Part shown: positions 2,147-19,453 of the stretch, piece after piece
How positions within the stretch are numbered: position 1 is the first letter of the stretch
Layout: every line of letters begins with the position of its first letter
NCBI GenBank assembly: GCA_028718965.1
Contig: JAQUKS010000001.1
Location: 1 to 57,213 of the forward strand
From: Minisyncoccota bacterium
GTDB taxonomy: Bacteria > Patescibacteriota > Minisyncoccia > Minisyncoccales > CG1-02-41-26
DNA: 57,213 bases
Reading direction: 5' to 3'
Position numbers and translations under genes: made by a program
The notes under the pieces: model-generated
Databases searched by the model: none
Told to the model about the DNA's origin: nothing
What the model saw: only the letters and a program-made list of their open reading frames with translations

Positions 2147-2866
2147 TCATTGTATGGGTATCACCTTGCCCAGAAATTGGGGCCTTGCCCCCGAGTTTAT
2201 GTCCATCCATGCTTTGACGTTCGCCAGCTTTTCCCGCAGAATGTTCAGCCAAACATTGCGGTAAATGTGTTTGTCAGCGCCAAAGCCGTAAACCTCCATG
2301 CCCAGCTGGCGCCCCAGATAAACGGCCCTTGGCAGATGAAAATCTTGGGTTGTGATGATAAGGCTTTCAGCCTTGAATATGTCCCTGGCACGGTAAAGAC
2401 TGTCGTAGGTGTCAAAGCCCGCGTAATCAAGGAATATCTTATCCTGCTCTATCCCCTGCTCCAGCAGGTATTTCTGAATGGCCGACGTTTCATTGTAATT
2501 CTTGACGCGGTTATCCCCTGAAACTAAAAAGTTCCGCGCTTTGCCCGCTCTGTAAAGCTCAATGGCCGTATCAGCCCTGTCTTTGAGCATATCACTCAAT
2601 GTCTGATCGCTGTGAACGCTTGCCCCAAGTATGAGAACGGTTTGCGAAGAGGGCAGTTCCTCAATGTTAGTGAAGATGTATGACTGGCTGATGGAGCTTA
2701 CGTTAAGATTGATCAGAATAATGACAGCGAGAAGAGCTGTTGCCATGATATAAAAAAACAAAACGTTCTTTTGCCAAAAATTCATTTTTGCGAAAAAATT
2801 CTTCGCCATAGCAATGAATACGGAAATTATGCCGCGGGCTTGGCCGTCGTTTTTTTTAAACAACAA
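2147..2866 (-). CDS. SanA/YdcF (DUF218) family membrane-anchored protein
   Basis: An N-terminal TM helix is followed by a DUF218-type pattern (LILGASV...VSGDN...DYAGFDTYDS). The longest ORF starts at TTG 2866; an ATG at 2809 is an alternative start. Confidence 0.7.
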   Translation of the reverse strand: MLFKKNDGQARGIISVFIAMAKNFFAKMNFWQKNVLFFYIMATALLAVIILINLNVSSISQSYIFTNIEELPSSQTVLILGASVHSDQTLSDMLKDRADTAIELYRAGKARNFLVSGDNRVKNYNETSAIQKYLLEQGIEQDKIFLDYAGFDTYDSLYRARDIFKAESLIITTQDFHLPRAVYLGRQLGMEVYGFGADKHIYRNVWLNILREKLANVKAWMDINSGARPQFLGKVIPIQ

Positions 2867-3120
2867 ACATCGGACAGCGGCACTATCCTTGTTCTAGAAA
2901 AATCGTCGTCATATCGCACGCCTATCCATTGGTAAGGATAGGGATTTTTGGCGTGGCAATCGCTTTTGTCCGCTATCTTTACCGGCACTGGCCCGGCTTC
3001 GCCTTTTACGCGCAAAAGCACCATGTCGCCTTTGCGCATTCCCCTCAAGGTCTCTTCGGGGCTTGGCTCCTTGTCAATATTATTATTGCGTTCAAATGTT
3101 AATCTTTCCGGCATGGCCAT
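2827..3120 (-). CDS. Hypothetical protein (97 aa)
   Basis: ATG-initiated ORF overlapping the valS 3' end by 22 nt and the longest SanA ORF by 40 nt. No recognisable motif. Confidence 0.35.
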   Translation of the reverse strand: MAMPERLTFERNNNIDKEPSPEETLRGMRKGDMVLLRVKGEAGPVPVKIADKSDCHAKNPYPYQWIGVRYDDDFSRTRIVPLSDVCCLKKTTAKPAA

Positions 3121-5210: not shown

Positions 5211-5963
5211 CTATGCTTGAGTACGATCTTTAAACTTTTCATCCAGCAAAGCGTAATATTTTGGTTTGCTGCTTTTGTCTATGCAGGTTTCGACAAAGCA
5301 ACCCAGGGCCCTTCCAATGTAATAAAGGTTTATTTCTGCGATGCGGCTTTCTTTATTTTGAAAAACTTTCCTGTCTGAATTGCCATCAAAACCTTCTTGA
5401 TTCGGGTAAGTTATTGTATCCAGATCGCCTATTATAAAATCCATGCTTTTCGTATCCTGATCAGCGGTATCAGAAACGGAGAAAAAATAAGCATCGTTGG
5501 GTATGATTATTTTTTTATCAGCTGCCAATTTGGCGTGCTCCCCCATGCTGTCAATAAATTCACCAAAGCCGGCAATTTCCTTTATCGGGTGATTTTCCAA
5601 ATACTTTAGGTTCTCGCTTCTGTTGAAAGATACTAATAGAGAACCGGGTTTATCGCCGTAGGTCATTAAAATACTTTTTCCATCCTCGGCAAGCCGGTAA
5701 GTAGTAAAAACTTTCAATCCGCTTTCCTTTAATTTTTTAAAATTATTCAATGCTTTCAGGGCTCTTTCCTCGCTCTTAAAAAGTTTTACGGCGAAATTCT
5801 TATTTTTTACCTTGTCATTGTTGACGATTTCCGTTTCAGAAAAAGAAACCTCGCCAAAAATACCTCGGCCGATCTTTTTCTTTGAAACAATTTTAACCGG
5901 CAATGACTCTTTGCCGGTATGCTTCAGATATTTTTGTCCGCCGGATGGTTCGCCTTCTCTCAT
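5211..5963 (-). CDS. Protein-kinase-like fold protein (atypical, no HRD motif)
   Basis: It has a Gly-rich loop IGRGIFGEV, a FAVKLF lysine and a DLD in the DFG-equivalent position. The catalytic-loop position reads IIIPNDAYF. Confidence 0.45.
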   Translation of the reverse strand: MREGEPSGGQKYLKHTGKESLPVKIVSKKKIGRGIFGEVSFSETEIVNNDKVKNKNFAVKLFKSEERALKALNNFKKLKESGLKVFTTYRLAEDGKSILMTYGDKPGSLLVSFNRSENLKYLENHPIKEIAGFGEFIDSMGEHAKLAADKKIIIPNDAYFFSVSDTADQDTKSMDFIIGDLDTITYPNQEGFDGNSDRKVFQNKESRIAEINLYYIGRALGCFVETCIDKSSKPKYYALLDEKFKDRTQA

Positions 5964-6319: not shown

Positions 6320-7693
6320 TTATTCCATTTTACCTTTTCGTTCGCTTTTAGTCAATTTTTTCTGTGGAAAACCCGTCCGGGCTGTTTGGCGCGCCTGCAG
6401 ATTGTCAGATAATTTATAGATGCTACCCGCGCCCATTATCACGACAATCTCTTTGGTTTTCAGATTGGTTTTCAAATAATCCGTAATTTCGTTTCGAGGC
6501 AGATAAAGAGCCCAGGCTTTGGCGATGGCTTCTACCAGCCTTTGGCTACTTATCTTGTTTTTGATGGCCTGGCTTTCGCGGCCCTCAACAGTGTAAATGT
6601 CGGTAATAATCAGCTTCTCGATACCGAATTTGCTCTGGGCCTGGCGAAAGACTTTGACAAATTTGTCGAACAGATAAAAAGTCCTTTGATACTGGTGGGG
6701 CTGAAAAACAATCCATTTTTTACGTTCAGGGTATTTTTCGGCCAAAGCCTGCAGAGTGGCTGCTATTTCCGTGGGATGGTGGGCGTAGTCGGAAATAATC
6801 GTAAACGACAAGTTACCGATTGCCGCCCTGCCTTCCTCAAACCTTCGCCAGACTCCCTTGTATACGCCAAGGGCTTCCAGGGCGATCTTATCGCTTACGC
6901 CCAGGAGCCGGGCCGCGTTCAAGGCAGCCAAAGCATTGGAAACATTATGCTCGCCCGGTACCCGCAGGATATTTTTCAGAAGATTGACGTCTTTTTTCTG
7001 CGTTAAAGAGAAAAAGACTGTTTTCTTGTCGTTTTTGAGGAGCTTTACGATGTTCGCGTTGTCTTTGTTGGCAATGATCCTTCCTTTCACCTGCGAGACG
7101 TATTGCCTGAAAATCTTCATTATATTATTCAAATCCTTCAAACAATCGAGGTGCTCTTCGTCAATGTTGGTAAGGATAAGAATGTCTGGATGATAATGCA
7201 AAAACTTGGCCTGATAATCATCAGCCTCGATAACCAGATATTTGCTTTTGCCCACCCGCCAGCCGGGCTTGGTGCCGATTACAAAAGTGGGGTCAAGGCC
7301 AGCCTCGATCAGTATTCCGGCTATCATCGAGGCAGTGGTGCTTTTGCCGTGCATGCCCGAAACCGCGATGGTGAAGTGATCGCGGCTTAATTCAGCCAAT
7401 GCCTCAGCTCCTGACAAACAGCGAATTTTCAGTTGCCTTGCCTCTTTCAGCTCCGGATTGCTTCGCGGCACTGCTTCCGAGTAAACGACCAGATCAATGT
7501 TCTTGGCGATGTTCGAGGCTTTGTGGCCGATAAACACCCTAATCCCCTGCTTTTTCAATTCAGCGGTGATCTCCGACGACTCGGCGTCCGAGCCCTGCAC
7601 CTTATGCCCTTTTTGCTGATAGATATTGGCTAAAGCCGAAATGGCAATGCCCCCAATCCCGATACAATGGATTTTCATATGTTTACTGACCAT
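6320..7693 (-). CDS. murC: UDP-N-acetylmuramate--L-alanine ligase
   Basis: IHCIGIGGIAISALA Rossmann N-terminus, the GMHGKSTT P-loop and the Mur ligase central/C-terminal pattern are present. The start was chosen at ATG 7693; the longest ORF starts at TTG 7720. Confidence 0.9.
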   Translation of the reverse strand: MVSKHMKIHCIGIGGIAISALANIYQQKGHKVQGSDAESSEITAELKKQGIRVFIGHKASNIAKNIDLVVYSEAVPRSNPELKEARQLKIRCLSGAEALAELSRDHFTIAVSGMHGKSTTASMIAGILIEAGLDPTFVIGTKPGWRVGKSKYLVIEADDYQAKFLHYHPDILILTNIDEEHLDCLKDLNNIMKIFRQYVSQVKGRIIANKDNANIVKLLKNDKKTVFFSLTQKKDVNLLKNILRVPGEHNVSNALAALNAARLLGVSDKIALEALGVYKGVWRRFEEGRAAIGNLSFTIISDYAHHPTEIAATLQALAEKYPERKKWIVFQPHQYQRTFYLFDKFVKVFRQAQSKFGIEKLIITDIYTVEGRESQAIKNKISSQRLVEAIAKAWALYLPRNEITDYLKTNLKTKEIVVIMGAGSIYKLSDNLQARQTARTGFPQKKLTKSERKGKME

Positions 7694-7747: not shown

Positions 7748-8224
7748 TCAAAGTCTGGCTATCATTATCACCTCATCCCCCCGAAAGAAATCCTTGATCA
7801 CGGCTTCGGGGCGGGCGTTAAGCGTTTTTTGATAAAGCCGCTGGGCCTGATTTTCCGTGCCCGTGGTTACCTCGATTGTCTTCAGTTTCGAGCCTCGTTC
7901 TTTAAGATAACTCAAAATCTTTTTCAATGATTGCTCAATCAAAAAAGTAGCCACTCCCCTGCCCCGGGCTGTTTCCTTAATGGCTATCTGCTCCAACTCC
8001 CAAACCGCTTCTTTTCTGAAGCCGCCTTTCTCCAGCCATAGAATATAGCCCAGAATTTCATCTTTTTCCTTGGCTAAAAAATACTGCATTCTGGGGTAAG
8101 CGCCAAAATTACAGCTTAGCCACTTTTTAGCTCCGCTGAAACTGCCATAACCCCTAAAGCACTGATTGGCGATCTTGGCTACGGCTGATATGTCTTTCTT
8201 TGTTAACGATTGGATTTTGAGCAT
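7748..8224 (-). CDS. GNAT family N-acetyltransferase
   Basis: 158 aa with an acetyl-CoA binding-type motif (ARGRGVATFLIEQ). Confidence 0.75.
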   Translation of the reverse strand: MLKIQSLTKKDISAVAKIANQCFRGYGSFSGAKKWLSCNFGAYPRMQYFLAKEKDEILGYILWLEKGGFRKEAVWELEQIAIKETARGRGVATFLIEQSLKKILSYLKERGSKLKTIEVTTGTENQAQRLYQKTLNARPEAVIKDFFRGDEVIMIARL

Positions 8225-8227
8225 AAA

Positions 8228-10030
8228 TTATTCTACGGTGACTGACTTGGCCAGGTTGCGCGGCTTGTCAACGTCGATTCCTTTGGCGTCAGCCACGTAA
8301 TAAGCAAGAAGCTGGAGCGGCACGACGTTGACCATCGGGGAAAGGCACTCCATGACAACCGGCGTTTCTATGATCCAGTCAGCCAGGTTTGAAGCCTCTT
8401 TGTCCCGCGGATTCACTATGGCCAGTATCCTGCCTCCTCTCGCCTTTATCTCCTGCATGTTGCTTAATATCTTTTCGTATGTCTGATCCTTGGTGGCTAT
8501 AAAAACGGCCGGCATATTCTCGTCAATCAAAGCAATGGGCCCGTGCTTCATTTCGGCCGCCGGATAACCTTCGGCGTGTATATAAGATGTCTCTTTGAGT
8601 TTCAAAGCCCCCTCCAGAGCCAGCGGATAATTAAAACCCCTTCCCAAATAAAGCGCGTTTCGCGTTTTCCGGAAAACCTCGGCTATTTTGCTTATCTCTT
8701 GGGGATGATCAAGAATATCCTGGATCTTCTCCGGCAAACCGGCCAGCTCTCTAAGAAACTCCGGGTCGGCCCGGCCGGTTCTTTGTTCCTGCAAAAAAGC
8801 GGTAAGCAAAGCCAGGGCGGCTATCTGGCACGTGAAAGCCTTGGTCGCGGCAACGCTTATTTCCGGCCCGGCGTGAAGATAAATGCCGCAGTCCACTTCC
8901 CTGGCAATAGTCGAGCCCACCACATTGACGATGCCAAGGGTTTTGGCGCCCCTTTCTTTGGCTTCTTTGAGAGCCGCCAGGGTGTCGGCCGTTTCGCCTG
9001 ACTGCGATATGACGACAGCCAGATCGTCTTTGTCAACAATGGGATCGCGATACCTGAACTCGGAAGCGTATTCCACGTCCACTCGCACCCGACAGAATTT
9101 CTCGATAAGCTGCTTGCCTATCAAGCCGGAATAAAAGCTGGTGCCGCAAGCCATAATAACGATCCTGTTCACGGCCTTCGCGTCAATGTCAACGGACAGT
9201 TTGACGGTATCGCTGGCAAGCCGGCCGCGCAGAGTGTTGGCCACTGCCTGGGGCTGTTCGAATATCTCTTTGAGCATAAAATGCTTGAACCCGCCCTTTT
9301 CGATTTGCTCGGCGTTCCATTTCAGCTCGCACACTTCTTTTTCGCTCACCTCTCCGTTAAGTTTTCTCGTCAAAAACCCGTCTTTTCCTATTGTCACCAT
9401 CTCGCCGTCATCCAGATAAACAACCTTTTTGGTGTATTTGAGTATGGCAGAGGCGTCCGATGCCAGGAACATCTCGCCATCTCCCAGGCCCAGGATGAAC
9501 GGAGAGCCTTTTCTCGCGCCGATTATCTTGTCTTCGCCCGCCTTGACCACGGCCAAGCCGAAGGTTCCCTGCAGTATCTTCAGGGTTTTTAAAACAGCTC
9601 CTTCGAAACTTGCTCCCTCGCTGAATTTCTCGATAAGATGGCTAATAACCTCGCTGTCGGTTTCGGAAACGAAACAATGGCCTTCCTTTTCCAGTATTTT
9701 TTTCAAAGCCTGGTAATTCTCGATAATGCCGTTGTGCACCACCGCGATATCTCCCTGGCAATCCAGATGCGGATGGGCGTTCTTCTCCGACGGCGCTCCG
9801 TGTGTCGCCCAGCGGGTATGGGCAATGCCGATGGTCGAGGCAAGGTCTTGGTTGGCGGCTTTTTTCACCAGCTCACCCACCCTGCCCTTGGCCTTGACGG
9901 CTTTCAAACCATTTTTTTCCGACAAACACACGCCCGCGCTGTCATAGCCGCGGTATTCCATTTGCCGCAAGCCCTCGATAAGCAAAGGAGTTGCTTTGCG
10001 AAACCCGATATAACCGAATATTCCGCACAT
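8228..10030 (-). CDS. glmS: Glutamine--fructose-6-phosphate aminotransferase
   Basis: MCGIFGY N-terminal nucleophile Cys, two SIS domains and the C-terminal KSVTVE. Confidence 0.95.
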   Translation of the reverse strand: MCGIFGYIGFRKATPLLIEGLRQMEYRGYDSAGVCLSEKNGLKAVKAKGRVGELVKKAANQDLASTIGIAHTRWATHGAPSEKNAHPHLDCQGDIAVVHNGIIENYQALKKILEKEGHCFVSETDSEVISHLIEKFSEGASFEGAVLKTLKILQGTFGLAVVKAGEDKIIGARKGSPFILGLGDGEMFLASDASAILKYTKKVVYLDDGEMVTIGKDGFLTRKLNGEVSEKEVCELKWNAEQIEKGGFKHFMLKEIFEQPQAVANTLRGRLASDTVKLSVDIDAKAVNRIVIMACGTSFYSGLIGKQLIEKFCRVRVDVEYASEFRYRDPIVDKDDLAVVISQSGETADTLAALKEAKERGAKTLGIVNVVGSTIAREVDCGIYLHAGPEISVAATKAFTCQIAALALLTAFLQEQRTGRADPEFLRELAGLPEKIQDILDHPQEISKIAEVFRKTRNALYLGRGFNYPLALEGALKLKETSYIHAEGYPAAEMKHGPIALIDENMPAVFIATKDQTYEKILSNMQEIKARGGRILAIVNPRDKEASNLADWIIETPVVMECLSPMVNVVPLQLLAYYVADAKGIDVDKPRNLAKSVTVE

Positions 10031-10047
10031 AATTGAATTTGTAATTT

Positions 10048-10098
10048 ACGAGCGGTAAAACATATTCATTAGAACAATTAAAATATTTTACCGCTCGT
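10048..10098 (-). promoter_or_regulatory. 13-bp perfect-stem hairpin between the small upstream ORF and the glmS start
   Basis: ACGAGCGGTAAAA (10048-10060) pairs with TTTTACCGCTCGT (10086-10098) around a 25-nt loop. No U-run follows on the minus strand, and glmS has no recognisable SD. Confidence 0.5.
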
Positions 10099-10104
10099 TG
10101 AGCC

Positions 10105-10200
10105 TCATTTGTCCGAAAACAGGCCGAGGCATGGCCTTACTTTTATCCCCAGCTGGCGAAGCCAGCTAAGGATTTTCCGTTCCTCCTTGGTGAGCCGCAT
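10105..10200 (-). CDS. Small ORF (31 aa) with a very strong SD in the glmS leader
   Basis: AAAGGAAAGGAGGTGAgtcaaATG leads into MRLTKEERKILSWLRQLGIKVRPCLGLFSDK. The coding region itself contains stem-loops (AGCTGGC-ttc-GCCAGCT on the minus-strand RNA). Confidence 0.35.
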   Translation of the reverse strand: MRLTKEERKILSWLRQLGIKVRPCLGLFSDK

Positions 10201-10392
10201 TTGACTCACCTCCTTTCCTTTTTAATTGAAGAGGGGGAGATCAAAAGAATTGATATCCCCCTTTGAGAAAAATATGTAAAGATTGCTTGTTTTCGGTGTT
10301 CCGCGAACGGAATCCCGGAAACTTGCAATCTTTTTTAGCTATTTATAAGAGCCAGCTTCATTGTGCGTCCGAAACTATGTTTTAACAATGGA

Positions 10393-10425
10393 CAAAAAAA
10401 AGACAAAATCCCGCTTTCGCGGGAT
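10393..10425 (-). terminator. Intrinsic terminator after the GHMP-kinase-like gene
   Basis: On the minus strand, ATCCCGC-GAAA-GCGGGAT is followed by TTTTGTCTTTTTTTTG. Confidence 0.7.
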
Positions 10426-10488
10426 AAAATAAAGCAAAACAAAAAGTGTTGCATTATTTAAGCAATCGCTTATATTTTGCAACACTTT

Positions 10489-12279
10489 CTATTTCACCAG
10501 CCAGATTGTAAGATTGTCGGGATCGAGCTTGAGATAAAAATCGCTTATGCCGCCCCTGATTGCCAGAGCAAGCTTTTTTTTGGTTTTTCGGGCTATGATC
10601 TTGATAAGAGGCGAAATGATTTTTCCCTGCAATTCGTAGCGGTCGTTGGCGTAAGAAGACGGAGGCAATTCGCTGCTGGAAACCTCCTGATTGGTTTTCG
10701 CGAGGAGAATCTTTAAAATCTTTATCGCGGTTTTCTGCGAATGAAGCTGGGCCGAGGTAAGGCTTTCGCCTTTGATCAGGATCCGTCCGGATTTTTCCAT
10801 TATCAAAATGTCGGCTTTTTGTTTTTGCGCGGCGAACTGTTCGGGAGAGAGCGGCCGAATAACAGAGCGGCCGCTGGCGAATTCTTGAACGACCACCGTA
10901 TTTTTGGAAACGAATTCCGAATATATTTTTTGCCCCAGAAACTGCTCCACCACCGCTCCCCTTTCTTCTATGCCGTCTATCCATGAGCCATAGCCTAATT
11001 GCACCTCCAGGCCGAATTCCTTTCTTAAGGTGGCTGTGATATCGGGCAGAATTTCCTGCTTTTGGCCCGCCGGAAAAACGAAAAGAACAATGTCCTTTTT
11101 GGTGGTGGAAACGGCCTTGACGCCCGCCCCAAGATCATCGGCCTTGCTGGCCTGGTGGTGAATAATCGAATTTACCGCGCCGGTCGTGTCTGACAAAAGC
11201 CCCAAAAGCAAGAATAGCGCCTGGTGGCGGTCGACGGCCCGCAAAAATTCCCTAAGATTATCCGTGCGATGCCCGCCTTTCAAAAGCGTTCCGAATTTCA
11301 GAAGCACGTCCCCGCTCAAAAAATTCATCACTTCAAGACAGCTGTTGTTCCAGAGTTTTTTGTCCTGCCCGAAAACCGACCGGGGAAAATTCTGGCGGAA
11401 AAAATCAGCGACGTTCTTAGTGGTTTCCTCCAAGGGCAAAGTGGAAAAGGGCGTATTGCCTCTCGGCTCGCCCAAATAAAGCAGGCCGAAATCAATCGGC
11501 CAGGAACGACGCCCGCTGATCTTGAATAATTCGTCGAGCCGGCCGCCGTCAAACTTTGCCTCATCAATGAGATCATAATTATCATTGATATTAAAAGGCA
11601 ATATCAGATTTTTCGTTTCTTTGATTAAGTAATAAAGCGGATAAACCGACGGCAAAAGGGTGGCAAAAAGAGTGGCTCCGCTGGTTTCGGCTCCCCGGTG
11701 GGCCGCCAGCATTTTCCAGGCCGAGCGAAAAACCGGATCGAAACGATATTTCTTGTTTCTTATCAGCTCGCTTGAATCTTGTTTCGTCCATTCCTTGAGG
11801 TCTTGCGGATAAACCTCCCTGGCCTGCAAATGAAAGGCCAAAGCTAAAGCCGAGCATAGGGCTCCCGAAGACCCGCTGCCCCCGAAAGGCATTTCCGAAA
11901 GCAGATGTATCCTGAAGGCCTGTTTTCGCAGTTTGCGGCCCCATATTTTATTGATAAATTCCGCCAAACGGTTTTGCGACAAATGGTCGTATTGGTCGGG
12001 CTGAAATTCTTGTTTGCGAAGAGAATACGACTGGCTGGCCGCGTCGAAATCAATGGCGGAGCCGCTGTTTTTGGGCAAAAACTCCAAGCCGACGTAAAGG
12101 CGCAGAGGCAGCTTCTGCAGCAGCATCAAGCCGCCCCAGTAGCCCACGTATTCACCAGCCCATGTAAAGAAATGGGGAGCCGAAACCACTATCTGGCACT
12201 TAGAAAAAAATTCCCGATAAACTTCAGGGAATCTTTTTTTGAGCGCTGCACTATTGAGTGAATCCCGAATTTTATCCAT
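10489..12279 (-). CDS. GHMP-kinase-fold protein fused to a C-terminal OmpR/PhoB-like winged-helix domain
   Basis: GHMP motif I-like SAPHFFTWAGEYVGYWGG and motif II MPFGGSGSSGALCSALALA are present. The last ~100 aa (GESLTSAQLHSQKTAIKILKILL...ISPLIKIIARKTKKKL...GGISDFYLKL) follow the Trans_reg_C pattern. Confidence 0.6.
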   Translation of the reverse strand: MDKIRDSLNSAALKKRFPEVYREFFSKCQIVVSAPHFFTWAGEYVGYWGGLMLLQKLPLRLYVGLEFLPKNSGSAIDFDAASQSYSLRKQEFQPDQYDHLSQNRLAEFINKIWGRKLRKQAFRIHLLSEMPFGGSGSSGALCSALALAFHLQAREVYPQDLKEWTKQDSSELIRNKKYRFDPVFRSAWKMLAAHRGAETSGATLFATLLPSVYPLYYLIKETKNLILPFNINDNYDLIDEAKFDGGRLDELFKISGRRSWPIDFGLLYLGEPRGNTPFSTLPLEETTKNVADFFRQNFPRSVFGQDKKLWNNSCLEVMNFLSGDVLLKFGTLLKGGHRTDNLREFLRAVDRHQALFLLLGLLSDTTGAVNSIIHHQASKADDLGAGVKAVSTTKKDIVLFVFPAGQKQEILPDITATLRKEFGLEVQLGYGSWIDGIEERGAVVEQFLGQKIYSEFVSKNTVVVQEFASGRSVIRPLSPEQFAAQKQKADILIMEKSGRILIKGESLTSAQLHSQKTAIKILKILLAKTNQEVSSSELPPSSYANDRYELQGKIISPLIKIIARKTKKKLALAIRGGISDFYLKLDPDNLTIWLVK

Positions 12280-12315
12280 ACGTTTGAGGTCTTAATCCGG
12301 CTGTTTCACATTATG

Positions 12316-14097
12316 TTAATACAGTTTCTTGAGCAATTCAAGATAGAAAGCGCTGCTCCATGCCTGGCACAAACAGCCCTCGCTCCGCAATTCAGCGGCC
12401 GAGCTTAGCTCGGAATGATGGCCGATAATCCCCTGCCATAAAATATCATGGGCGCTGGCTTTGGCTATTTTTTCGATATAAGGCAGAAATGTTTTTTTAT
12501 CGGTCGCGGCCATCATCAAGCCCGCCAGGTTGTTGATGAAAAACCAGCTGTCGCCCTGATGATAGCTCGCGGCGTTTTCGCCGGTATGCTCGCTTTGAAA
12601 ATCGCTGTTTTGCCTGTCCAGGGTGGCCAATCCCCCCCACTCCAGCCAAAGCCGGCCCAGGGCATTCTCAAAGCATTTTTGCCACTCGGCCCTAGTAAGC
12701 AGTTTGGGATAAGCCAGGGCTGCCAAAAAGATATTGGGCCGGACGGTTTTGTCAGGCGTTTGATTATCGAAAAGCCCGTCCGCTAAAATTTCGCCATCCC
12801 ATAATTTTTCTTTGAAGTATCTCCGGCCTTCCTTTTCCTGTCTGCGGTAGAAAAACTTTTTCCGCCAGAATTCGTAATTGAGCGCGCCCAAACGATAAGC
12901 GTTCAGCAACAGCGCCTGCATTTCCAGGCAGTAAGGAGCGCGGCCGATGCTGTCCATCCAGGTTGACTTGGGATAATGCAGGAAAAAGCTTTTAGGAGAG
13001 CTCACGCGGCCGTTTTTAAAGAACTCTTCGATGGCCGCGAGTAGAAATTTTCTCCGGAAAGAAAAGTTTTCCGAACGCTTGAAGAGCCAGCCCCATCCGT
13101 CCACTGCCGAATCGTTTTTTTCGCCCTTGATGATGGAAACGAGCGTTTTCTCGAAAATCGTCTTAGCGGCGGCCGGCTTGACATAAGAAAGGGCTTTTAA
13201 GGAAAGAGCCGTATCCCTCTGCCACGACTGGAAGAACCATGGCAAGCCCGCGTAAAGCATTTCCGGCTTTTTCTTTTTGCTGTCGCAAACCAGAAGCCCC
13301 TGCAAAGAATTTTTGGCGCAAAGATAAGCCATTTTCAGCTCCGGATTGCCAATGGAAGGCTCGTTGAAAAAAGGCAGCAGTTTTTTTGCTTCTTTTTGCC
13401 GCTTGTTTTTCAAAATTTTCAGGTTGTCCGCCCCGGCCGCGGCTTGCGTGATGGCTTCTTCTTTGTTTAGCGCGACCGCGAAAATTATTCTTTGGGCGCC
13501 AATCAGCTTCAAGGCGACAAAAACATGACGTTCGAAGGGCGGCGAGCTTCGTTTCCTGTCGTAGGAATATTCTTTAAGCCGCCATTTTTTGATGAGTTCG
13601 GTTTCGCGGTTGTCGCTTTTTATGGCTAGCCAAATTTCCGGAACTCCCAAATCTGGCTGGGTATATTTGACCAAAGTAAGGCCGCTCTCGTAAAAAATCT
13701 CATAAGAGCGGCTGTCATTTCGGTTGTCGAACGATTCTTTGACGTCCAAGACCACGCTAAGATTTTTTTTCTCGCTCACCTCGTAGGAGAAAACATCCGA
13801 AGACGCCGGCAAAAAGAAAGTTTCCATCAGTTCGCCTCTTTTTTGCTGGCAGTTCCAAAAATTATTCCTTACTTCTTCGACCGCGGGCGCGTTCTCGATT
13901 TCGATGCTTTCCACAAGCCGGAACATTTTTACGCCTGCCAATCCGGCGGGCGTAAAAAACCAGCCCTGGTAGCGACTCTTCGTTTCGCCGCCCCACCATA
14001 AATAGCCCCCTGTTTTATTGGTAAGCAAAAACGAGCCATCGCCGTCCGTAAGCTTGGCTAGACGGTTTTTTTCGTTGAAATAGTGGACTACTTTCAT
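12316..14097 (-). CDS. Amylo-alpha-1,6-glucosidase / glycogen debranching enzyme (GDE_C-type)
   Basis: 593 aa with GLPWFFQSWQRDTALSL and a C-terminal (alpha/alpha)6-type pattern (HQGDSWFF, CQAWSSA). The start overlaps the upstream stop (ATGA). Confidence 0.75.
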   Translation of the reverse strand: MKVVHYFNEKNRLAKLTDGDGSFLLTNKTGGYLWWGGETKSRYQGWFFTPAGLAGVKMFRLVESIEIENAPAVEEVRNNFWNCQQKRGELMETFFLPASSDVFSYEVSEKKNLSVVLDVKESFDNRNDSRSYEIFYESGLTLVKYTQPDLGVPEIWLAIKSDNRETELIKKWRLKEYSYDRKRSSPPFERHVFVALKLIGAQRIIFAVALNKEEAITQAAAGADNLKILKNKRQKEAKKLLPFFNEPSIGNPELKMAYLCAKNSLQGLLVCDSKKKKPEMLYAGLPWFFQSWQRDTALSLKALSYVKPAAAKTIFEKTLVSIIKGEKNDSAVDGWGWLFKRSENFSFRRKFLLAAIEEFFKNGRVSSPKSFFLHYPKSTWMDSIGRAPYCLEMQALLLNAYRLGALNYEFWRKKFFYRRQEKEGRRYFKEKLWDGEILADGLFDNQTPDKTVRPNIFLAALAYPKLLTRAEWQKCFENALGRLWLEWGGLATLDRQNSDFQSEHTGENAASYHQGDSWFFINNLAGLMMAATDKKTFLPYIEKIAKASAHDILWQGIIGHHSELSSAAELRSEGCLCQAWSSAFYLELLKKLY

Positions 14098-18730: not shown

Positions 18731-19453
18731 TCAGCTTTGTTCGAAAAGCAGAGCGGCCCCGATGGCATTGGCGTTGGAGCCCGGCTTGAGCAAAAATATC
18801 TTGGGCATTTGTTTTTGGGGCGCGAGAAGGAATCCGGCTATTATTTGTTTCTTGGGCGCTTTGACTCCCCCGCCCCCGATAACGATCATCTCCGGATTGA
18901 TGATGTTCATAAGATTGGCAAGACCGATGGCGTTTATTCTTTCCTGTTCTTTGGGATTGTTTTTGCTTTTTTGATAGAGCTTTTCCCAGGATCTTCCTTT
19001 GTCAATTATCATGTGGCCCACTTCACCGGCCGGGCTTTCAAGTATTCTGCCGTTTATCATCAATCCCCCGCCTATTCCGGTGCCAAAAGCGACTGCCAGA
19101 ACGTTTTTATGCCCTTTGGCCGCTCCCAAAGATGATTCGGCCCTTAAAAGGCAGTGAACGTCATTGTCGATCCTCACTGTTTTTTCCGGCCAAAGTTTTT
19201 TCAAATTAAGACCATCCAGATGGGGCGCGTTCGGGCATTTGATGATTTGCCCTTTGTAAGCGTCAAAAACACCAGGCACGCCGACCCCTATTTTACGCAA
19301 ACCATACTCCAGCCCTATCGCTTTGAGAACGCTTTGTTTCGGACTACCGTTGACGCGCTTTTGCTCAACGACCCCGCGGCCGTCCCAAACAACAACGTTT
19401 ATCTTCGACCCCCCGATGTCTATGCCCAAAACATTTTCTTTTTGCTTTGCCAT
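18731..19453 (-). CDS. ROK family sugar kinase (glucokinase-like)
   Basis: LGIDIGGSKINV ATP-binding N-terminus and GTGIGGG. It is short (240 aa) and has no Zn motif. Confidence 0.75.
   Translation of the reverse strand: MAKQKENVLGIDIGGSKINVVVWDGRGVVEQKRVNGSPKQSVLKAIGLEYGLRKIGVGVPGVFDAYKGQIIKCPNAPHLDGLNLKKLWPEKTVRIDNDVHCLLRAESSLGAAKGHKNVLAVAFGTGIGGGLMINGRILESPAGEVGHMIIDKGRSWEKLYQKSKNNPKEQERINAIGLANLMNIINPEMIVIGGGGVKAPKKQIIAGFLLAPQKQMPKIFLLKPGSNANAIGAALLFEQS

Follow-up and report, generated by a model that had tools for sequence, protein, structure and literature searches.

Architecture of the protein and its family

The stretch of DNA analysed here, hereafter the window, comprises the first 57,213 nucleotides of contig JAQUKS010000001.1 from a Minisyncoccota bacterium. 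On its minus strand, directly upstream of a predicted promoter that faces the glmS gene, lies a gene for a protein of 596 amino acids that combines a kinase-like fold of the GHMP type with a C-terminal winged helix. This gene and a repeat element that follows it are the subject of the analysis, and the features are collected in Table 1. An earlier note on this DNA, which was made from the sequence alone, had placed the open reading frame (ORF) and given its length exactly.

Table 1. Positions of the features in the window and, in the lower rows, the clade loci with their palindromes and neighbouring genes
Feature	Position	Strand	Description
Gene under study	10489–12279	-	596 amino acids, ATG start; GHMP-like, predicted pseudokinase and OmpR-like winged helix
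GHMP fold, residues 29–441	10957–12195	-	mevalonate kinase/galactokinase-like; profile, hhalign, Foldseek
Motif II (P-loop remnant), residues 128–148	11836–11898	-	SEMPFGGSGSSGALCSALALA; degenerate family-wide, E129 the sole invariant residue
Linker, residues 442–488	10816–10956	-	β-hairpin and helix (AlphaFold model)
Basic winged helix, residues 489–596	10492–10815	-	OmpR/PhoB-like topology; separate model, Foldseek
Predicted recognition helix, residues 547–566	10582–10641	-	RYELQGKIISPLIKIIARKT; alignment and model
Intrinsic terminator 1	10434–10486	-	9-bp stem AGTGTTGCA/TGCAACACT, then T-run
Intrinsic terminator 2	10408–10425	-	hairpin ATCCCGCGAAAGCGGGAT; T-tract extends into the repeat element
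Predicted operator	10391–10406	-	two TTGTC direct repeats 11 bp apart (TTGTCTTTTTTTTGTC)
Repeat 1	10406–10402	-	
Repeat 2	10395–10391	-	
Predicted -35 hexamer	10388–10383	-	TTGTTA; abuts the proximal repeat directly
Predicted -10 hexamer	10365–10360	-	CACAAT; 17 nt after the -35 hexamer
glmS	8228–10030	-	glutamine-fructose-6-phosphate aminotransferase; conserved downstream partner, presumed regulated gene
GNAT acetyltransferase	7748–8224	-	always paired with glmS in the clade
Clade locus, window			glmS and GNAT downstream, adjacent
Clade locus L006 (78% identical)	palindrome ~9650–9670		glmS and GNAT downstream, PGK and FBPase intervening
Clade locus L007	palindrome ~6590–6615		downstream FMN reductase, glmS, GNAT
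Clade locus L001	palindrome ~11870–11895		downstream nagA, nagB, glmS, GNAT; gaps of a few bases
Clade locus L041	palindrome ~2805–2830		downstream nagA, nagB, glmS, GNAT
Clade locus L042	palindrome ~2970–2995		downstream nagA, nagB, one extra gene, glmS, GNAT
Clade locus L043	palindrome ~5585–5605		downstream APH-type kinase
Clade locus L044			upstream MltG; downstream rplJL

Homology searches identified 38 relatives, nearly all from metagenomes, and the few with a label were assigned to Patescibacteria or Kerfeldbacteria. The family alignment and the profile derived from it contain 33 members, which are co-linear along their whole length. A search with this profile against representatives clustered at 50% identity retrieved 1265 sequences at E ≤ 1e-3 and 497 at E ≤ 1e-30. 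Because nearly all of the best 150 of these 497 representatives align end to end over about 600 amino acids, the fusion of the GHMP fold to the winged helix is the ancestral state of the family. The fusion that the earlier note had described for a single protein is thus an architecture found throughout this family of Patescibacteria.

Searches with the single sequence were nearly empty, and family profiles were needed to detect the folds. The 596-residue protein had no match in the PDB and no family model in NCBIfam, PADLOC or PHROGs, and none of its matches in Pfam was significant. The Pfam search identified neither a receiver domain (Response_reg), the N-terminal region having the GHMP fold, nor a ROK domain, and the ROK gene of the window is a distinct gene located at 18731–19453. 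The most conserved motif of the family, Y-x-S-W-x-D-G-x-E (residues 430–438), is placed just before the linker. Also strongly conserved in the alignment of the 33 members are the N-terminal 60 residues and the winged helix.

The GHMP fold and the loss of catalytic residues

For the window protein alone, the match to the Pfam domain GHMP_kinases_N was below the threshold (E = 0.04, 14.6 bits vs a cut-off of 22.3), and 20 of its 33 relatives matched the domain at E ≤ 1, the best of them at E = 1.3e-7. The profile of the 33 members matched mevalonate kinase structures in the PDB at E = 9e-9, in alignments that span both the N-terminal and the C-terminal GHMP domain. With hhalign, residues 29–441 were aligned to residues 6–378 of rat mevalonate kinase with a probability of 96% (E = 4.6e-9). 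The length of the rat sequence used and its residues K13, E19, S146, E193 and D204 fit the numbering in the literature, and three stretches match the PDB alignment obtained in the profile search. The alignment-based AlphaFold model of the full-length protein has a mean predicted local distance difference test score (pLDDT) of 88.7 and a predicted template modelling score of 0.88, and a Foldseek search of the PDB with this model placed galactokinases and mevalonate kinases at the top (E = 6.5e-15), in support of the GHMP domain recognised in the earlier note. When the family was aligned with hhalign to the true galactokinase that neighbours one of its members, the N-terminal third alone could be aligned.

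The protein resembles mevalonate kinase and galactokinase in its end-to-end fold, the remnant of motif II, a SELP-like glutamic acid (Glu129), a lysine before motif III (Lys388) and a C-terminal strand with the pattern W-x-x-x-G. It differs from them in an extra C-terminal module of 155 residues, in the absence of the catalytic residues and in an enlarged middle, which had also been noticed earlier. The domain covers about 413 residues as compared to about 373 in mevalonate kinase, and the insertions, which amount to about 40 residues, are located near residues 155–180 and 220–245.

In the hhalign register, the catalytic lysine K13 of rat mevalonate kinase corresponds to F37, the magnesium ligand E193 to L191, and the catalytic base D204 to T203. 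Across the 33 members, the position equivalent to K13 is occupied by F, S, N, A, Q, H or V, and the position equivalent to D204 by T, S, G or A. None of the 33 members has an aspartic or glutamic acid within ten residues after the conserved Ser-Gly, which is part of PSGVD in mevalonate kinase. The P-loop reads PFGGSGSSGA in the window protein rather than PxGSGLGSSAA, is variable throughout the family without any invariant residue, and is deleted in one member. Motif III (TGAGGGG) is replaced by STTKKD in the window protein and reads TG.G..G[DE] in other members. Of the two GHMP motifs that the earlier note had called clear, motif II is thus present at residues 128–148, while motif I lacks the catalytic Lys/Arg.

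Because the catalytic Lys/Arg, the magnesium-binding glutamic acid and the catalytic aspartic acid are replaced family-wide, and both the P-loop and motif III have degenerated, the N-terminal domain is predicted to be a pseudokinase, and an active small-molecule kinase, as the earlier note had envisaged, is unlikely. The concentration of conserved residues in the N-terminal 60 positions, the motif at residues 430–438 and the winged helix fits a pseudoenzyme that has been retained as a binding or sensor module. An alternative is that the protein is an active GHMP-type kinase, acting for example on hexosamine or N-acetylhexosamine and feeding nagA/nagB or the salvage of UDP-N-acetylglucosamine (UDP-GlcNAc), with a C-terminal domain for oligomerisation or localisation. 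In its favour, the high-confidence model shows a full GHMP fold, the gene heads nagA-nagB-glmS-GNAT operons that do not contain any kinase, and homoserine kinase works without a catalytic base. We nevertheless regard such an enzyme as improbable, as the equivalents of K13, E193 and D204 are non-catalytic in every member, conservation is lacking at the P-loop serine and in the glycine-rich motif III, and one member adjoins a bona fide galactokinase. An active kinase would also leave the basic winged helix and the gene-linked direct repeats described below unexplained.

The C-terminal winged helix

Residues 485–596 were modelled separately with a pLDDT of 93.9. The model consists of two to three N-terminal strands followed by a helix, a strand, a short helix, a long helix, a β-hairpin and a final strand. 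The best specific matches to this model in the PDB, as identified with Foldseek, were the DNA-binding domains of the OmpR/PhoB-family proteins BaeR, AdeR, PhoP, ToxR, KdpE and RegX3. The probabilities were in the range from 0.82 to 0.98 for BaeR, AdeR, PhoP and ToxR, with BaeR at 0.98, and 0.41 for KdpE. At the sequence level, the best PDB match to the profile of the C-terminal region was the effector domain of DrrD (E = 0.14), and Trans_reg_C (PF00486) was matched by three of the 33 members (E = 0.018). When the profile was compared with the DNA-binding domain of PhoB by hhalign, significance was not reached (E = 0.26), although the register was as expected. The model suggests an OmpR-like winged helix for the C-terminal domain at the fold level only, and we do not file it as a member of the Pfam family Trans_reg_C. 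The winged helix that the earlier note had seen in the last one hundred or so residues is retained at this level, the sequence evidence being weak.

The domain is basic, with a mean net charge of +7.9 and a mean isoelectric point (pI) of 9.6 over the 33 members; residues 485–596 of the window protein have a net charge of +10 and a pI of 10.0. It is also the best-conserved part of the protein (mean column identity 56% vs 46%). In the predicted recognition helix, K553, P557 and L558 are invariant among the 33 members and R547, Q551 and I554 nearly so, the invariant proline being located mid-way in the helix. In the alignments with PhoB and DrrD, short stretches are inserted ahead of helix 1 and within the recognition helix.

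A repeat element downstream of the gene

The intergenic region downstream of the gene contains two intrinsic terminators followed by a pair of direct repeats and a predicted promoter. Terminator 1 is kept almost base for base in the 78%-identical relative (L006, ~9557–9610), where the loop palindrome can be written AAGCGAT[T/C]GCTT for both loci. The repeats were compared among the members with at least 47% identity, here called the clade, which are represented by eight independent loci including the window. A k-mer comparison of the flanking intergenic regions identified 10-mers common to six of the eight loci, as compared to at most three in shuffled sequences. All eight loci contain the pattern TGTC-N7-TGTC[C/A]ATTG on the same strand within 110 nt downstream of the stop codon. 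A near-identical 23-mer, TTGTCTTTTTTTTGTCCATTGTT, is present in six of them, although the proteins encoded at these loci share just 47–55% identity with the window protein. Four loci contain a third TGTC, which is placed 10–11 bp further on or, in L044, further upstream.

The conserved ATTG supplies a TTGnnn hexamer, which in all eight loci is followed after exactly 17 or 18 nt by a hexamer resembling a -10 element. This hexamer is TAnnnT in seven of the loci, and CACAAT in the window. We predict from these patterns a weak promoter of the sigma-70 type, in which the two phased repeats span about -38 to -58. The predicted site lies within the 10.2–10.45 kb region that had been put forward as a candidate for DNA binding.

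The element occurs as a single copy in the 865-kb genome, even if four mismatches are permitted in the 23-mer, and a scan of the whole genome for PF00486 gave no match, which leaves no other Trans_reg_C protein to own the site. Among nine related genomes, of which eight contain glmS, the element is confined to the two that have the gene studied here, with one copy in each, immediately past the gene. The element was not found in the 68-bp spacer between the gene for the GDE-type debranching enzyme and glmS in a genome that lacks the gene (G301). Regulator and operator seem, from these comparisons, to be gained and lost as a unit.

In more distant members (25–36% identity), repeats of the type TTTTC(C/G) with a spacing of 10–11 bp are located at the same place, and in several of these loci the repeats are separated from the stop codon by a strong terminator. 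We searched 44 loci of the family with the strict pattern TT[T/G]TC-N5-6-TT[T/G]TC. It was present on the same strand between 20 nt before and 200 nt after the stop codon in 22 of the 44 loci, upstream of the gene in two, and downstream on the opposite strand in one. Other genes of at least 200 amino acids in the same loci were followed by the pattern in 14 of 335 cases, which is a highly significant difference (22/44 vs 14/335; Fisher's exact test, p = 1.3e-14). A position-weight matrix placed the best site of the entire locus in this downstream interval, which makes up about 1% of the search space, in 20 of the 44 loci, although the same hits had served to train the matrix, which makes this test circular in part. 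The residue at position 548, in the predicted recognition helix, is a tyrosine in all eight loci with TTGTC repeats, and mostly an asparagine in the loci with TTTTC repeats, where threonine, serine, glycine and, in a single case (L037), tyrosine also occur. This distribution suggests that Tyr548 tracks the TTGTC type of half-site.

Genomic neighbourhood

Upstream of the gene, the window encodes a ROK protein, a GT4/GT5 synthase, a GH57 protein, a GT3 glycogen synthase and a GDE-type debranching enzyme. The genes downstream encode GlmS, a GNAT acetyltransferase and a Mur ligase. The earlier note had placed the gene at the end of an alpha-glucan operon. However, within the clade the glucan genes are located upstream in the window and its 78%-identical relative alone, and the conserved partners are instead amino-sugar genes located downstream. 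Such partners, which are glmS-GNAT, nagA-nagB or an APH-type kinase, are encoded on the same strand directly after the gene in seven of the eight clade loci. Furthermore, genome G310 contains both the gene and glmS but lacks glycogen synthase, and in G301, which represents a species of the same genus, the debrancher gene is followed by glmS after 68 bp and the gene studied here is cleanly absent. Based on the synteny in the clade and the co-occurrence in these two genomes, the functional link is to amino-sugar metabolism and not to alpha-glucan metabolism, and a functional link to the alpha-glucan operon was rejected.

In five of the clade loci (window, 7748–10030; L001, L041, L042 and L007), glmS is followed within 1–82 bp by a gene for a GNAT protein of about 160 amino acids, often after nagA-nagB. 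This pairing suggests a GNA1-like step, in which glucosamine 6-phosphate (GlcN-6-P) is N-acetylated, and hence that these bacteria make UDP-GlcNAc by a eukaryote-type route.

Outside the clade the neighbours vary, and those that recur and are related to sugars include a ROK kinase, a true galactokinase, a HAD hydrolase, an IMPase with a nagA-like gene, and polysaccharide export genes. We found no neighbour common to the whole family outside the clade, except for a large unannotated protein in loci from Gracilibacteria. In these five loci (L026, L027, L032, L033 and L038), which were read with genetic code 25, the gene is followed by a gene for a homologous protein of 1073–1455 amino acids; the one copy scanned, that of L027, had no match in Pfam. 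The repeat element is missing from most of the five. In L031, a distant member is located directly upstream of a true galactokinase at 11730–13013 with the domains GalKase_gal_bdg, GHMP_N and GHMP_C, an arrangement of a pseudokinase regulator with an active kinase that recalls GAL3 and GAL1 of yeast. In L009 (2589–2855) and L021 (12149–12433), homologous cysteine-rich, zinc-ribbon-like proteins of 88 and 94 amino acids are encoded directly downstream of the repeat element, and other loci contain unrelated small cysteine-rich ORFs at this position.

The glmS leader

The leader from the predicted promoter to glmS in the window (10031–10360, minus strand) is about 320 nt long and is not conserved in the 78%-identical relative. 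It contains GC-rich hairpins near 10310–10295 and 10250–10232, and an ORF of 31 codons at 10200–10105 (MRLTKEERKILSWLRQLGIKVRPCLGLFSDK) behind a strong ribosome-binding site (AGGAGGTGA). A hairpin with a 13-bp stem (10098–10048) ends 17 nt before the ATG of glmS, which has no Shine-Dalgarno sequence. A covariance-model search for the glmS ribozyme (RF00234) gave no match between 9900 and 10600, whether the gathering threshold or a cut-off of E ≤ 1 was applied, and seven related loci were likewise negative; nor does Rfam contain a family that matches the repeat element or the leader. The earlier description of a terminator followed by a glmS leader was right about the terminator after the gene, but the leader contains no known ribozyme or riboswitch. 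In G301, the 68-bp spacer before glmS (L048, contig C69, 2441–2508) is almost wholly taken up by a single perfect hairpin, its stem about 22 bp long, which also ends 17 nt before a glmS ATG that has no Shine-Dalgarno sequence. A long hairpin before glmS thus recurs with a different sequence.

Distribution

In an even sample of 301 genomes from the phylum, 14 contained the gene, usually as a single copy. It was found in three of 25 genomes of the family to which the window organism belongs, and in two of four species of its genus. Named records of the protein family come from Saccharibacteria, Kerfeldbacteria, Berkelbacteria, Curtissbacteria, Microgenomates, Parcubacteria, Magasanikbacteria, Falkowbacteria, Gracilibacteria and Peribacteria. 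Two records (L012 and L016) are labelled as uncultured Gammaproteobacteria, labels that are probably wrong given the gene content and the relatives. Because its presence is patchy across the phylum, the family and the genus, the gene is accessory and not part of the core. A housekeeping or core function in the Candidate Phyla Radiation (CPR) was rejected on the basis of these counts and of the variation within the genus.

A putative one-component regulator

We propose that the protein is a ligand-sensing one-component transcription regulator of the adjacent downstream promoter, to which we assign a probability of roughly 0.6. The earlier note had listed a one-component regulator among its alternatives, and this reading is best supported, given the missing catalytic residues and the gene-linked promoter element with direct repeats. 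The N-terminal 440 residues would serve as a GHMP pseudokinase that senses a sugar or a sugar phosphate, possibly together with a nucleotide. The winged helix would bind two or three TTGTC direct repeats, placed one helical turn apart, as a tandem oligomer, and the regulator would thereby control the promoter immediately downstream of its own gene. Activation is favoured over repression, at odds of roughly 60:40, because the site abuts a weak -35 element, as is the case for activators of the OmpR/PhoB and SARP types. The genes under control would be glmS-GNAT in the window and nagA-nagB-glmS-GNAT in the sister loci, and an amino sugar or its phosphate is a plausible ligand. Since the promoter faces these genes, the regulator in this clade probably tunes the supply of GlcN-6-P and of precursors for UDP-GlcNAc. 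Whether the family can be described more specifically is evenly balanced. It would then consist of Patescibacteria-specific one-component activators, the first with a GHMP pseudokinase as sensor, in which an OmpR-like winged helix acts on phased TTGTC/TTTTC repeats, gene and promoter move together, and glmS and the nag genes are controlled.

Several observations weigh against a regulator of this kind. The matches of the winged helix in the Foldseek search had template modelling scores of 0.49–0.61 but modest E-values of 0.011–0.15, and the similarity of the window protein to Trans_reg_C (PF00486) was not significant in Pfam. About 30% of the family loci have no recognisable repeat element. Outside the clade, the genes that follow differ from locus to locus, so that neither a regulon nor a ligand can be assigned to the family as a whole, and because the loci with TTGTC repeats form one clade, their match to Tyr548 amounts to a single phylogenetic event. 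In the window, the T-rich repeats partly coincide with the T-tract of the terminator, and they occupy the position where an UP element would sit. Finally, six clade loci contain a palindrome (e.g. ACTATCTTGGAGATAGTT) over the predicted -10 element, followed by a T-run, and this hint of an RNA hairpin or attenuator is not accounted for by the proposed regulator.

The position and composition of the repeats could mean that they represent a generic UP element or the T-tract of a terminator, and that the protein is a pseudoenzyme or scaffold that does not bind DNA. Such an explanation is consistent with their T-richness and their placement at about -38 to -58, the usual location of UP elements, with the overlap between the window element and the tail of the terminator, and with the modest statistical support for the assignment of the winged helix. 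It does not account for an element that has no second copy in the genome, comes and goes with the gene, and is strongly enriched downstream of the family genes in comparison with the 335 control genes, nor for a half-site that differs between clades in step with a residue in the recognition helix. We therefore consider it very improbable.

The palindrome may represent an RNA attenuator, a second operator or the terminator of the regulator gene itself. One compensatory change is observed (CTACC/GGTAG in L043), and L001 contains pairs of the G-U type. These pairing patterns and the hairpin with T-run would suit a protein that binds RNA and acts in attenuation or antitermination, with UUGUC repeats in the read-through RNA and a weak terminator, consisting of a hairpin and a U-run, located 20–25 nt downstream and before the amino-sugar genes. 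In several loci the repeats begin 4–11 nt past the stop codon and are therefore probably co-transcribed with the gene. On the other hand, a strong terminator separates the gene from the repeats in the window and in several distant loci, the phasing of 10–11 nt fits the helical repeat of DNA and DNA binding by the OmpR family, and the hairpin overlaps a -10 hexamer placed at a fixed distance of 17 or 18 nt from TTG. RNAalifold recovered no consensus structure for the region after the repeats in the eight clade loci, and no match was found in Rfam. OmpR-type winged helices are, to our knowledge, not known to bind RNA. Control at the level of RNA thus appears doubtful to us, with small odds similar to those of an active kinase.

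Comparison with known regulators

The proposed regulator of transcription resembles NagC, Mlc and XylR of the ROK family, where the ligand is sensed by a catalytically inactive sugar-kinase fold joined to a winged helix-turn-helix. Through NagC, N-acetylglucosamine 6-phosphate governs the nag genes and glmUS, which belong to the same pathway. The folds are however unrelated, ROK proteins having the actin-ATPase fold and not the GHMP fold. Furthermore, the DNA-binding domain of NagC, Mlc and XylR is N-terminal, is not of the OmpR type and recognises palindromic operators, whereas the domain described here is C-terminal and is predicted to act on direct repeats.

Gal3p and Gal1p of yeast and XOL-1 of C. 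elegans are cases in which a GHMP fold with diminished or no catalysis has taken on a regulatory role as ligand sensor. Galactokinases are the best structural matches of the window protein. Unlike the protein analysed here, which has a winged helix in the same chain, none of the three has a domain that binds DNA. Most active-site residues are retained in Gal3p, which works by sequestering Gal80, whereas both the catalytic Lys/Arg and the aspartic acid are gone in the window protein.

The topology of the winged helix is also shared with outputs of the OmpR/PhoB type that have no receiver, such as ToxR, CadC and SARP/AfsR-type proteins. Pho boxes (CTGTCAT repeats) and the heptamer repeats of SARPs are direct repeats about 11 bp apart that abut or overlap the -35 element, and the predicted site resembles them, with TGTC as its core. 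The window protein differs from regulators of the OmpR/PhoB family in having neither receiver, BTAD domain nor membrane anchor, and in a similarity to Trans_reg_C that is below significance in Pfam. A search of the accessible literature revealed no account of a protein in which a GHMP fold and a DNA-binding domain are combined. The protein would thus combine a new sensor fold with a divergent output domain in a one-component regulator.

Implications for gene regulation in Patescibacteria

Bacteria of the CPR have tiny genomes with very few recognisable transcription factors, and almost nothing of their regulation is grounded in experiments. The family described here offers a predicted sensor, DNA-binding domain, operator and promoter geometry, and in one clade also a predicted regulon, glmS-GNAT with or without nagA-nagB. 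If the proposal is correct, the GHMP fold would join the sensor domains of bacterial one-component regulators, in convergence with the ROK repressors and with Gal3p of yeast. The compact regulator-operator module might serve as a portable inducible system once its ligand is known. For the bacteria themselves, it would mean that the committed step towards amino sugars and peptidoglycan precursors is controlled in some bacteria of the CPR without a glmS ribozyme, and that in this clade the module has taken over a role which is filled elsewhere by NagC, NagR, the glmS ribozyme or GlmY/Z.

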